61,912 nt of DNA from an uncultured Opitutales bacterium (GTDB lineage Bacteria; Verrucomicrobiota; Verrucomicrobiia; Opitutales; CAYWEO01): NCBI GenBank assembly GCA_964457855.1, contig CAYWEO010000006.1:1-61912 (forward strand). Reading direction: 5' to 3'. This document shows positions 58,044 to 61,219 of the stretch, in pieces (position 1 is the stretch's first letter; every line of letters begins with the position of its first letter). The translations under genes were made by a program, and so were the position numbers. Under the pieces are notes generated by a model. That model saw nothing but the letters and a program-made list of their open reading frames with translations. It made no database searches and had not been told where the DNA came from.

Positions 58044-58070
58044 ATAATAGGCAAGTTAGGGTGGTGGTGA

Positions 58071-58238
58071 CCTGGAAAACCATTTTTTGCAAAAATTAGT
58101 TTTCCAGGGCCCTTTCCAAAAAAACTCTCGTTTCGGAAGGCATTTTTTGGCACGTAGTGCCAGAAAAATGCCTTCCGATATGCTTTTCTTTGAAGGGTCC
58201 GGGAAACTTTCTTTTCGAAGAAAAGAAAGTTTCCCGGA
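58071..58238 (+). repeat. Complete tripartite mosaic (H1-H2-H3) inside the atpD-atpC spacer
   Basis: H1 at 58071-58108 has CCTGG...CCAGG ends. H2 lies at 58132-58178 and H3 at 58198-58238. Confidence 0.9.
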
Positions 58239-58255
58239 AAAACATCCTCCTTATT

Positions 58256-59683
58256 TTATTTTTTTTTCAGCGCGAGGACGTCGTCAATAGGGCCTTTCAT
58301 ATAAAAGTCATTTTCTTGGAAGTCATCGAGTTCGCCGTTGAGGATCATTTTGAAGCCGCGGATGGTGTCTTTGATGGAGACGTATTTGCCTGGGAAACCG
58401 ACGAAGACCTCTGCGACGTGGAAGGGTTGGGAGAGGAATTTTTGGATTTTTCTGGCGCGGGAGACGGTGAGCTTGTCGTCGGGGGAGAGTTCGTCGATGC
58501 CGAGAATGGCGATGATGTCCTGGAGTTCCTTGTAGCGTTGCAGAACGGACTGCACTTGGCGAGCGACGTTAAAGTGCTCTTCTCCAACGACATTCGGATC
58601 AAGAGCCTTCGATGTCGATGACAGCGGATCAACGGCCGGGTAGATGCCAAGCGCGGCAATGCGGCGTTCCAGAACGATTGTGGAATCCAAGTGCGCAAAT
58701 GCATTCGCCGGAGCGGGATCCGTGAGGTCGTCTGCCGGAACGTAAATCGCTTGGAATGAGGTAATGGAGCCCTTTTTAGTCGACGTGATGCGTTCCTGCA
58801 GGAATCCCATTTCCTGACTTAACGTGGGCTGATACCCGACGGCCGATGGAGAGCGTCCGAGGAGCGCGGACACTTCAGATCCGGCTTGCGAGAAACGGAA
58901 GATGTTGTCAATGAACAACAAAACGTCTTGGCTGCGCTCGTCTCTAAAATACTCTGCTACAGCGAGTCCTGTTAGTGCGACACGCATACGTGCCCCCGGG
59001 GGCTCGTTCATTTGCCCATAAATCAGGGCAACTTTCGACTTTTCCGGTTCCACTTCATTAATAACGCCCGCAGAAATCATCTCGTAATAAAGGTCATTTC
59101 CTTCGCGCGAACGCTCTCCAACACCCGCAAAAACGGAAAGCCCCCCGTGCGCCTTAGCAATGTTGTTGATCAGTTCCGTGATGACAACCGTCTTCCCAAC
59201 GCCCGCACCGCCAAATGCGCCCACTTTTCCACCCTTTGTGAACGGACAAATGAGGTCGATCACCTTAATTCCCGTCTCAAGAATGATGGATTCCGGATTC
59301 TGCTCAATTAACGTCGGTGGCGGGCGGTGTATGGGGTAATAAACGGATGCCTTGATGGGCCCTTTATTGTCGATGGGGTGCCCCGTGACGTTGATGATGC
59401 GCCCCAAAACGCCCTCCCCAACGGGAACCGTGATCGGCTTTCCGGTGTTGGTCACCGTCATTCCGCGAACGACCCCTTCCGTCGACGACATCGCGACGGC
59501 TCTCACTTGCCCATCCCCCAGGTGCTGCTGGACTTCCAATGTCAAACACGTCGCCGCATCGTCGCCCACGTTAAACGTCAGCTCCAATGCGTCGTAAATC
59601 TTCGGTAGCTCCCCAACGTCAAATTGGACATCTACTACCGGCCCAATGACTTGTGTTATAGTTCCTTGCTGTATCGTACTCAT
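58256..59683 (-). CDS. atpD: F1 ATP synthase beta subunit
   Basis: Carries the P-loop GGAGVGKT and the DELSPDD-type motif, and is strongly conserved throughout. Confidence 0.97.
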
Positions 59684-59692
59684 GTTGCTTTT

Positions 59693-59814
59693 TGACCGCT
59701 TCGATTTTGAGCGGCGAGTTCGTTGCGCTCGGCCTCAATGCCATCACGTACGTTAGTACGCTCAGGCATCTTGTCCTCGCGCGCCTGCTCGTCATCTCAA
59801 ACTTGAAGCGGTCA
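59693..59814 (+). repeat. L element copy L9 (subfamily LB) in the atpG-atpD spacer
   Basis: Sequence by helix: TGACCGCTTCGATTTTGAG-CGG-CGAG-TTCGTT-GCGC...GCC-ATCA-CGTAC-GTTA-GTACG-CTCA-GGC...GCGC-CTG-CTCG-TCAT-CTCAAACTTGAAGCGGTCA. Confidence 0.9.
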
Positions 59815-59840
59815 TCGTAAGATTTGTTAAAAATAAGGTA

Positions 59841-59946
59841 TTGGAAGGCATTTTTGGGCCTGCAAGGCATAAAAATGCCTTCCGAATAAGAGTTTTTTTG
59901 GAAAGGGTCCGGGAAAACCAATTTTTGCAAAAAATGGTTTTTCCGG
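59841..59946 (-). repeat. Partial tripartite mosaic (H2-H1 on the + strand) in the atpG-atpD spacer
   Basis: H2 at 59841-59885 has a degenerate inner stem. It is followed by the linker ATAAGAGTTTTTTTGGAAAGGGT and H1 at 59909-59946. Confidence 0.85.
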
Positions 59947-59974
59947 TATCTCATCCACAAAATCATCTCTAAAA

Positions 59975-60865
59975 TTAATTTTCATGTTGGCTAGCGGAGA
60001 TTTCGACGATTTCTTGGGTGATGGAGCTTTGGCGGGCCTTATTGAATTCGAGGGTGAGGTCGTCGAGGATTGTTTCGGCATTGTCTGTGGCGGCTTTCAT
60101 GGCGACCATGCGGGCACTGTGTTCGGAAGCCTTTGTTTCGAGGAGGATTTGGTAGAGGGCCTTTTTGAGGAAGAGGAGGGGGAGTTGGTCGAGAATGGCC
60201 TGAGGCCCGGGTTCCATGAGCATGGGACGCGGGTCTGGAGAGGGGAGATTGCGCGATTCGAAGTTCTTGAATTGTTCCTCCAAATGCTCATGGAAGTGCT
60301 GCATGGGGAGAAGATTTTGCAGCGAAGTTTCTTGAACAAGGACGTTTTTGAAGCGTGGAAAGAGGATTTCGACGGTATCGATTTCACCACTTTTGAAGGC
60401 ATCTACGACGAATTCTGCGATTTTTTGGACGTCAGAGAAGTGCACAGTATCGGGTACGCAGAATTGACCTAAGACGTTGCAGTGCATGCGCGAAAGATAC
60501 TGCATGGGCTTGTTTCCAACGACGATAAACCGCGATTCTTGCGGATGCAGGAGGTGAATTTGCTTGTAAAGGTTCTGGTTGAGCGTCCCGCAGAGGCCCT
60601 TATCGGTTCCGATGACCAAAATCCCACGATGCACGATTGGCCGCTCTTCAAAAAATGGGTGATTGATCCGAATTTCCTGCAAATCGATCTGCTTCGCCAA
60701 TGACCCAATGATCTCCGCGAGCAAAAGATTGTACGGACGACCCGATAACGCCGCGTTCTGCGCCCTTTTCATCTTCGACGCCGCAACTAAATGCATCGCA
60801 CGCGTAATCTGAGCGGTATTCCTGATGGCTCTGATGCGATGTTTAATCTCTCTTAAACCTTTCAT
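59975..60865 (-). CDS. atpG: F1 ATP synthase gamma subunit
   Basis: Starts MKGLREIKHRIRAIRNTAQITRAMHLVAASKM and has a conserved C-terminus (ITQEIVEI). The start was trimmed to 60865 because upstream codons read through L10. Confidence 0.9.
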   Translation of the reverse strand: MKGLREIKHRIRAIRNTAQITRAMHLVAASKMKRAQNAALSGRPYNLLLAEIIGSLAKQIDLQEIRINHPFFEERPIVHRGILVIGTDKGLCGTLNQNLYKQIHLLHPQESRFIVVGNKPMQYLSRMHCNVLGQFCVPDTVHFSDVQKIAEFVVDAFKSGEIDTVEILFPRFKNVLVQETSLQNLLPMQHFHEHLEEQFKNFESRNLPSPDPRPMLMEPGPQAILDQLPLLFLKKALYQILLETKASEHSARMVAMKAATDNAETILDDLTLEFNKARQSSITQEIVEISASQHEN

Positions 60866-60873
60866 ATCGTTGT

Positions 60874-60993
60874 AAGCGCGTCGATTTTGAGCGGCGAGTT
60901 CGTTGCGCTCGGCCTCAATGCCATCACGTACGTTAGTACGCTCAGGCATCTCGTTCTCGCGCGCCTGCTCGTCATCTCAAAATCGAAGCGCTT
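60874..60993 (+). repeat. L element copy L10 (subfamily LB), 9 nt upstream of the atpG start
   Basis: It is almost identical to L9 in the core. The outer stem AAGCGCGTCGATTTTGAG pairs with CTCAAAATCGAAGCGCTT. Confidence 0.9.
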
Positions 60994-61017
60994 CCTCGTT
61001 AAAAAATTGAAAATTTT

Positions 61018-61053
61018 GGAAAACTTTATCTTTGTAAAGAATGGGTTTCCCGG
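61018..61053. repeat. Degenerate solitary H1-like hairpin
   Basis: GGAAAACTTTATCTTTGTAAAGAATGGGTTTCCCGG is an imperfect palindrome with an H1-type 3' arm. Confidence 0.5.
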
Positions 61054-61065
61054 AACTTGAGCGAC

Positions 61066-61219
61066 GAAAAGACGGCATCTATTTTGAGATGACGAGCAGG
61101 CGCGCGAGGTCGATTGGAGACCATCCAATCCCCCAATTCCTGAGCGTACTGACGTACGTGATGGAATTGAGATCCGATGCGCAACGAACTCGCCGCTCAA
61201 AATAGATGCCGTCTTTTTC
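61066..61219 (-). repeat. L element copy L11 (subfamily LB, opposite orientation, longer apical arm)
   Basis: The 23-bp outer stem GAAAAGACGGCATCTATTTTGAG pairs with CTCAAAATAGATGCCGTCTTTT(T)C. The core reads GAG-ATGA-CGAG-CAGG-CGCGC...CC-TGAG-CGTAC-TGAC-GTACG-TGAT-GG. The right end overlaps the atpA stop codon. Confidence 0.9.

Follow-up and report, generated by a model that had tools for sequence, protein, structure and literature searches.

Whether hairpin repeats lodged between the genes of an ATP synthase operon are tolerated or used is the question raised by atpA, atpG, atpD and atpC, which lie at one end of a 61,912-nucleotide (nt) stretch of DNA (the window) from an uncultured Opitutales bacterium of the Verrucomicrobiota. 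The window corresponds to contig C6 in a 43-contig, 1.08-Mb metagenome-assembled genome with a completeness of 92.7%. An earlier sequence-only reading had proposed that the three spacers between these genes, of 352, about 290 and 212 nt, are all invaded by repeats; with the repeats located by whole-genome nhmmer profiles, this was confirmed for spacers of 352 nt (atpA-atpG), 291 nt (atpG-atpD) and 212 nt (atpD-atpC). The repeats belong to two families spread over the genome, the long hairpin L and a mosaic of the shorter hairpins H1, H2 and H3, and they are probably tolerated, co-transcribed passengers of a REP/BIME-like and ERIC-like kind rather than devices specific to ATP synthase.

Repeat content of the three atp spacers

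The atpA-atpG spacer is occupied by a tail-to-tail pair of L copies, L11 and L10, whose 5' ends lie 3 nt from the atpA stop codon and 8 nt from the atpG start codon, one fewer than the 9 nt first given for L10 (Table 1). The outer stem of L11, a perfect 22-nt inverted repeat specific to this copy (I14), begins directly past the UGA of atpA; UUUUCGU comes after the stem. L11 also bears an additional mini-hairpin of ~24 nt (mRNA-strand sequence GGGGGAUUGGAUGGUCUCCAAUCGACC; window 61095-61135) that is missing from the L consensus. What had been taken for a degenerate H1 between the two L copies fared less well, being a weak H1/H3-like half-hairpin remnant for which nhmmer returned no call. For the atpG-atpD spacer nhmmer agreed with the proposed H1, H2 and L9, as it did with the complete H1-H2-H3 mosaic of the atpD-atpC spacer. 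Repeats of the operon occur in both orientations. L10 matches L9 at 96% identity and a copy on contig C3 at 99%; overall, L9 and L10 share 96-99% identity with copies elsewhere in the genome, compared with only 75-82% for L11, pointing to separate insertions of different age.

Insertion into short ancestral junctions

In at least 12 relatives, order-level ones among them, the atpA-atpG, atpG-atpD and atpD-atpC junctions measure -4 to 56 nt, bearing out the expectation that they are normally a few to tens of nucleotides long. Three metagenomic contigs, whose AtpG proteins are the closest (57-59% identity), have junctions of 1-9 nt within a compact atpBEFHAGDC operon. Because the same junctions are this short in relatives, the long atp spacers are, by this comparison, insertions into short ancestral junctions. 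Within the genome itself, the atpB-E-F-H-A junctions (on contig C17, which holds the remainder of atpA) measure 42, 48, 15 and 3 nt and are free of repeats, and a tail-to-tail L pair lies upstream of atpB (C17 15132-15367).

Distribution of the repeat families across the genome

Together, L (184 loci), H1 (108), H2 (165) and H3 (167) make up 3.5% of the genome. By our own codon-usage gene caller, which makes all spacer counts approximate, repeats fill 229 of the 784 called spacers, with the highest occupancy between convergent genes (67/112, 60%), followed by divergent (36/115, 31%) and co-directional spacers (126/557, 23%); 9 of 624 repeat matches fall inside called genes. Runs of at least three occupied co-directional spacers numbered three, where shuffling predicts 2.7 (p = 0.52), so that the atp triple is not statistically special, and an atp-specific clustering of repeats was rejected. 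The remaining two runs, identified with Pfam, are fba-oppA-oppB-oppC and mraY-murD-ugd-kdsB, where the same repeats fill the oppA-oppB and oppB-oppC junctions (C3 38621-42160) and the mraY-murD-ugd-kdsB junctions (C19 1408-6117). Of the two outcomes offered by the sequence-only reading, toleration accords with this wide occupancy, with the compact junctions of relatives and with the invasion of opp and mraY-murD; nothing specific to atp spoke for use. The real phenomenon lies in the repeat families, which have spread over the whole genome, rather than in the atp operon, and it is a modest discovery.

H1-H2-H3 recurs in a fixed order, in both orientations, with linkers that align between copies. 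Nine co-directional spacers contain an L->H2->H1 composite, also with alignable linkers and with 30-50 nt from L to H2 (e.g. window 22529-22811). In seven of the nine, L has its 5' end directly against the stop codon of the upstream gene; the atpG-atpD composite is one of the two that are flipped, its L 5' end lying 10 nt before the atpD ATG. This polarity is general: of 149 L copies, 64 have the 5' end no more than 20 nt away from a gene boundary (a stop in 54, a start in 10), and only two have the 3' end so placed. Start-abutting copies, with gaps of 4-14 nt, stand ahead of atpD, atpG, mraY and genes with dnaG-, glyQS-, xth- and gmhB-like N-termini (outside atp, mraY was checked with Pfam and the others are named from their N-termini). 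L pairs are tail-to-tail in 18 cases and head-to-head in three, and the pair that abuts both a stop and a start, as between atpA and atpG, recurs before the genes with glyQS-like and xth-like N-termini; no homology was found between the inner segments of different L pairs, which speaks against the pairs as a REPIN-like inverted doublet that replicates as a unit. In the H hairpins, TAA, TAG and TGA trinucleotides are 4-12 times rarer than base composition predicts, on both strands.

Predicted RNA structure and transcription signals

The spacers carry very stable hairpins, as proposed: folding z-scores against dinucleotide shuffles are -17.9 (atpA-atpG), -8.4 (atpG-atpD) and -10.6 (atpD-atpC), and none of the shuffles was as stable. 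By prediction, ~70% of the nucleotides in the spacers are paired, and the longest unpaired run measures 5-27 nt. For the atpA-atpG spacer, a long-range L11:L10 duplex is predicted at -208 kcal/mol vs -157 kcal/mol for two local hairpins, although co-transcriptional folding would favour the local L11 and L10 hairpins over the duplex. No Rfam family matched the atp spacers, and Rfam holds no ERIC model.

On the mRNA strand of the spacers, neither sigma-70-like promoters, scored on a consensus that is unverified for this lineage, nor terminator-like sites were found above shuffle expectation; a weak TTGACG-18-AAAAAT match is present at the atpD 3' end. U-rich tails follow only ~10% of L copies, L11 among them, and the sequence next to L9, L10 and the H hairpins on the mRNA is A-rich or mixed. 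The H2 apex, TGGCAC...GTGCCA, was considered as a sigma-54 promoter and rejected, by sequence inspection only, for its wrong GG-GC spacing. The genome encodes rnc, rne/rng and rho.

Translation starts and reading frames

No Shine-Dalgarno enrichment was detected upstream of starts genome-wide (core 4-mer at 17.8%, vs 16% in the coding control), leaders are rich in A/U and poor in G, with T at -1 in 53% of genes, and the 16S 3' end was not found in the assembly. Start accessibility was taken as the mean unpaired probability over positions -15 to +12 and ranked genome-wide, giving predicted values of 0.33 for atpG (10th percentile), 0.63 for atpD (84th) and 0.61 for atpC (81st). L9 is placed before atpD as L10 is before atpG, yet the atpD start is predicted to be open. 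The concern over the atpG start needs other words: that L10 leaves no obvious room for a ribosome-binding site is the wrong frame because the genome lacks Shine-Dalgarno enrichment, and what the prediction shows is low accessibility. A perfect AAGGAGG lies at 58246-58252 (minus strand), 3 nt past the atpD stop and abutting an out-of-frame AUG, in a genome otherwise without Shine-Dalgarno motifs; it could have belonged to an ancestral ribosome-binding site of atpC and since been displaced, or it could belong to the edge of the mosaic.

A 119-codon frame spans the atpA-atpG spacer, joined to both genes by AUGA overlaps. It was considered as a relay open reading frame but probably arose by chance, since frames that bridge a whole spacer show no excess on the sense strand over the antisense strand (five vs eight of 118 genome-wide). 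Such chance frames are made easier by the depletion of stop trinucleotides in the H hairpins. Among repeat-bearing co-directional spacers of at least 150 nt, a stop-free frame is present in 34% on the sense strand vs 17% on the antisense strand.

Operon layout and gene calls

The ends of contigs C6 and C17 share an overlap of ~55 nt inside atpA (window 61858-61912), from which the atpBEFHAGDC-thioesterase operon is contiguous. The atpC-thioesterase junction is compact and without repeats, and the same thioesterase gene lies 3' of atpC in one of the three contigs with the closest AtpG (L028). The AtpG N-terminus, MKGLREI, agrees with that of relatives, which places the true ATG at 60865; the deposited 324-amino-acid (aa) AtpG (P0001, open reading frame start 60949) is over-extended by 28 codons, with its in-frame ATG inside L10. 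These surplus codons (60866-60949) are translated antisense of L10. The best AtpG match among 5.8 billion proteins has 60% identity, and the closest matches bearing a source name are annotated as Puniceicoccales.

Table 1. Genes, spacers and repeats at the atp locus, with atp junctions of the relatives G020 and G026 (window positions unless a locus is named; fold, predicted folding energy in kcal/mol)
Feature	Position	Strand	Fold	Remarks
atpA (alpha subunit), 3' part	61218..61912	minus		runs to contig end
119-codon frame	60862..61221	minus		AUG overlaps atpA UGA; UGA overlaps atpG AUG
atpA-atpG spacer	60866-61217			holds L11 and L10
L11, L-family hairpin, 141 nt	61074..61214	minus	-78	sense on mRNA; nhmmer 107 bits
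L11 outer stem	61067-61088 / 61196-61217
Half-hairpin remnant	61018..61054		-9.2	between L11 and L10; repeat family D1, 70% identity
L10, L-family hairpin	60874..60990	plus	-63	antisense on mRNA
atpG (gamma subunit), 296 aa	59975..60865	minus		Pfam PF00231, 1.5e-79
atpG-atpD spacer	59684-59974			holds H1, H2 and L9
H1	59909..59946		-15	nhmmer 48 bits
H2, variant apex	59841..59886		-25	nhmmer 39 bits
L9, L-family hairpin	59694..59810	plus	-61.5	antisense on mRNA
atpD (beta subunit), 475 aa	58256..59683	minus		81% identity with closest relative
atpD-atpC spacer	58044-58255			holds H3-H2-H1
H3	58198..58237		-29	nhmmer; 19-bp perfect stem, 18 nt past atpD stop
H2	58132..58179		-32	nhmmer
H1	58071..58108		-18	nhmmer; 27 nt ahead of atpC ATG
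atpC (epsilon subunit), 141 aa	57618..58043	minus		Pfam PF02823
4HBT thioesterase	57163..57621	minus		ATG overlaps atpC stop (ATGA)
G020 atpE-atpF	L031 3700-3950			at least 188 nt; L->H2->H1 composite
G020 atpA-atpG	L031 1099-1256			158 nt; 128-nt ERIC-like hairpin ending 1-2 nt before atpG AUG
G020 atpD-atpC	L032 658-847			190 nt; H1-H2-H3-like mosaic, orientation opposite to this genome's
G026 atpE-atpF	L029 4431-4623			193 nt
G026 atpA-atpG	L029 1755-1984			230 nt; H3-like hairpin
G026 atpG-atpD				23 nt
G026 atpD-atpC				2 nt

Expanded atp junctions in two relatives

Among 40 order-level genomes, L- or H-like sequences were found only in G026 and G020 (1.3 Mb each), together with a few matches in G036. 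Both G020 and G026 carry long, repeat-bearing atp junctions (Table 1), the atpG-atpD junction of G020 being tight. With AtpG identities of only 53-57%, and with elements that vary from one genome to another, the atp spacer expansions of the three look like independent events. Since the L->H2->H1 composite is also present in the atpE-atpF spacer of G020, it would be older than this genome, or may itself be the mobile unit.

Toleration weighed against other explanations

In the explanation that we favour, separate insertions of two genome-wide families, the ~117-nt L and the H1-H2-H3 mosaic, would have lengthened ancestrally short junctions, and the repeats would be transcribed within a single atpBEFHAGDC-thioesterase mRNA. 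Each element would fold on itself, which would keep each stop codon close to the following start. This folding would create no canonical terminator (a short-loop hairpin with a U-tract) and, the longest unpaired runs being so short, would leave little free untranslated RNA for the loading of Rho. Initiation without Shine-Dalgarno pairing would allow atpG, atpD and atpC to be started independently after tight coupling was lost. As side effects, hairpins 3' of atpA, atpG and atpD may block 3'-5' exonucleases following endonuclease cuts, an L11:L10 duplex of more than 100 bp would be suited to RNase III, and the atpG start may be partially occluded, which would fit a low need for gamma.

It is very unlikely that the operon is instead fragmented, with the repeats supplying terminators and/or promoters and with atpA, atpG, atpD and atpC as separate transcription units. 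Repeats are commonest between convergent genes, where transcripts end, UUUUCGU stands past the L11 outer stem, and the motif at the atpD 3' end is a weak match to a promoter consensus that the lineage may or may not follow. Set against these are the spacers' lack of promoter- or terminator-like sites above shuffle expectation, the ~90% of L copies without a U-tract, the A-rich or mixed sequence past L9, L10 and the H hairpins, the harm to be expected if polarity reduced beta relative to alpha, and the ATGA overlap retained by atpC and the thioesterase gene. Near-perfect palindromes in a fixed mosaic order, and the binding of gyrase, IHF and Pol I by BIMEs (PMC3184786), would suit a role at the DNA level, as cruciforms, as sites for gyrase, IHF or nucleoid proteins, or as recombination or replication signals whose position in atp is incidental; the strand polarity of L relative to genes, which points to placement linked to transcription or translation, speaks against such a role, which we hold to be extremely improbable. 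Scarcely credible is an assembly artefact, by which repeats would have been misplaced into the atp spacers of this metagenome-assembled genome: contig ends often coincide with repeats, such as the L fragments at the start of C5, but gene order is fully syntenic with relatives, the copies differ in their flanks and have diverged in sequence, and analogous expanded atp spacers exist in two other genomes.

Co-option of the repeats as regulators also seems unlikely to us. Under it, the hairpins would set subunit ratios from one transcript by the logic of the REP element at malE-malF, where structure guides differential operon decay (PMC5927463), with 3' hairpins stabilising the mRNA segments of atpA and atpD once RNase E or RNase III had cut, and with start-proximal structure lowering gamma. 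Stable hairpins 0-28 nt past each upstream stop, the predicted accessibility of the atpG start compared with that of atpD, the presence of rnc and rne, and the precedents (PMC5927463, PMC3184786) are consistent with such a scheme, as are the expanded junctions of G020 and G026, which precede lower-copy subunits. However, the atpG-atpD spacer is also filled though it lies ahead of the high-copy beta, the atpC start is predicted open despite single-copy epsilon, three consecutive occupied spacers are at chance level, orientations are mixed, and the elements of the relatives differ in type and orientation. Several observations, for their part, weigh against the repeats as tolerated, co-transcribed passengers. 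Co-transcription, processing and stability effects are all things that we infer; the promoter scan finds nothing upstream of atpB either, so that its negative result for the spacers is weak and was treated as uninformative; and the L11 outer stem with UUUUCGU, a borderline terminator, could terminate some transcripts. Stop-free spacers are sense-only in 25 cases vs antisense-only in five (p = 0.0003). Moreover, the atpE-atpF, atpA-atpG and atpD-atpC junctions, at each of which a lower-copy subunit comes next, are expanded in 7/9 cases vs 1/11 for other junctions (Fisher p = 0.0045; p = 0.09 when limited to junctions with room for insertion), a bias that hints, on small numbers, at selection or target preference rather than pure neutrality. 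We regard it as distinctly unlikely, though, that in this order of Verrucomicrobiota hairpin repeats are retained preferentially at the c->b, alpha->gamma and beta->epsilon transitions as portable 'step-down' modules. In such modules the 3' hairpin would shield the upstream high-demand cistron, the downstream cistron would be lowered by start-proximal structure or lost coupling, the lineages of this genome, G020 and G026 would have arrived at the arrangement independently with different elements, and L would owe its polarity, the 5' end lying next to stop or start codons, to translation boundaries being targeted or to selection acting there.

Comparison with known repeat systems

By analogy, the phenomenon belongs to a kind already described (PMC3184786; PMC5927463). 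H1-H2-H3 resembles the REP/BIME elements of enterobacterial operons (malE-malF, hisJ-hisQ and oppA-oppB type) in consisting of short palindromic units in a fixed-order mosaic, and in its sites past stop codons, mostly between convergent genes and also within operons, here an opp operon among them. Co-transcription and protection of the upstream segment from 3' exonucleases, expected of REP/BIME (PMC5927463, PMC3184786), are here predicted from sequence. The invaded opp operon likewise resembles the REP-containing junctions past the binding-protein gene in enterobacterial transport operons. In contrast to the G+C-rich REPs, the repeats here have AT-rich stems with G/C clamps, and their density, at 3.5% of 1.08 Mb, is far higher. 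No RAYT/Y1 HUH transposase (PF01797) was found in a six-frame search of the 92.7%-complete genome, a search in which control genomes matched.

L is an imperfect palindrome of ~117-141 nt that folds as a single long hairpin whose apex is a small palindrome, like the 127-bp ERIC/IRU, and it occurs in either orientation in transcribed-looking spacers, comparable to the ERIC copies in Yersinia transcription units. The likeness is one of length and fold, and L differs from ERIC in its copy-specific self-complementary outer stems and marked polarity. No TA target duplication was found at the flanks of L9, L10 and L11, which instead have copy-specific inverted flanks (I14). Because RAYT was not found and TA duplications do not flank L, the elements are not filed as REPINs or as ERIC proper. 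The hairpin in the atpA-atpG spacer of G020 presumably resembles the ERIC core. ERIC and REP elements both affect mRNA (PMC3184786), and the passages of that source citing De Gregorio 2005 describe an ERIC 3' of a gene that can create an RNase E site and alter decay of the upstream mRNA.

A third comparison is offered by the Correia/NEMIS elements of Neisseria, abundant hairpin repeats of ~100-150 bp that are co-transcribed with their neighbours and form long duplexes cut by RNase III. A duplex of this sort could, as modelled here, be formed by the L11:L10 pair. L differs in having no terminal inverted repeats with TA duplication, and no IHF site or promoter boxes were recognised in it.

Significance

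An essential, stoichiometrically constrained operon has here taken up ~850 nt of highly structured non-coding RNA, spread over three junctions in a row, and evidently still works. The locus offers a test bed for how internal cistrons are translated without Shine-Dalgarno-led initiation once coupling is lost, for whether self-folding insertions escape Rho polarity, and for whether hairpins of the REP/ERIC type reshape operon stoichiometry outside enterobacteria.

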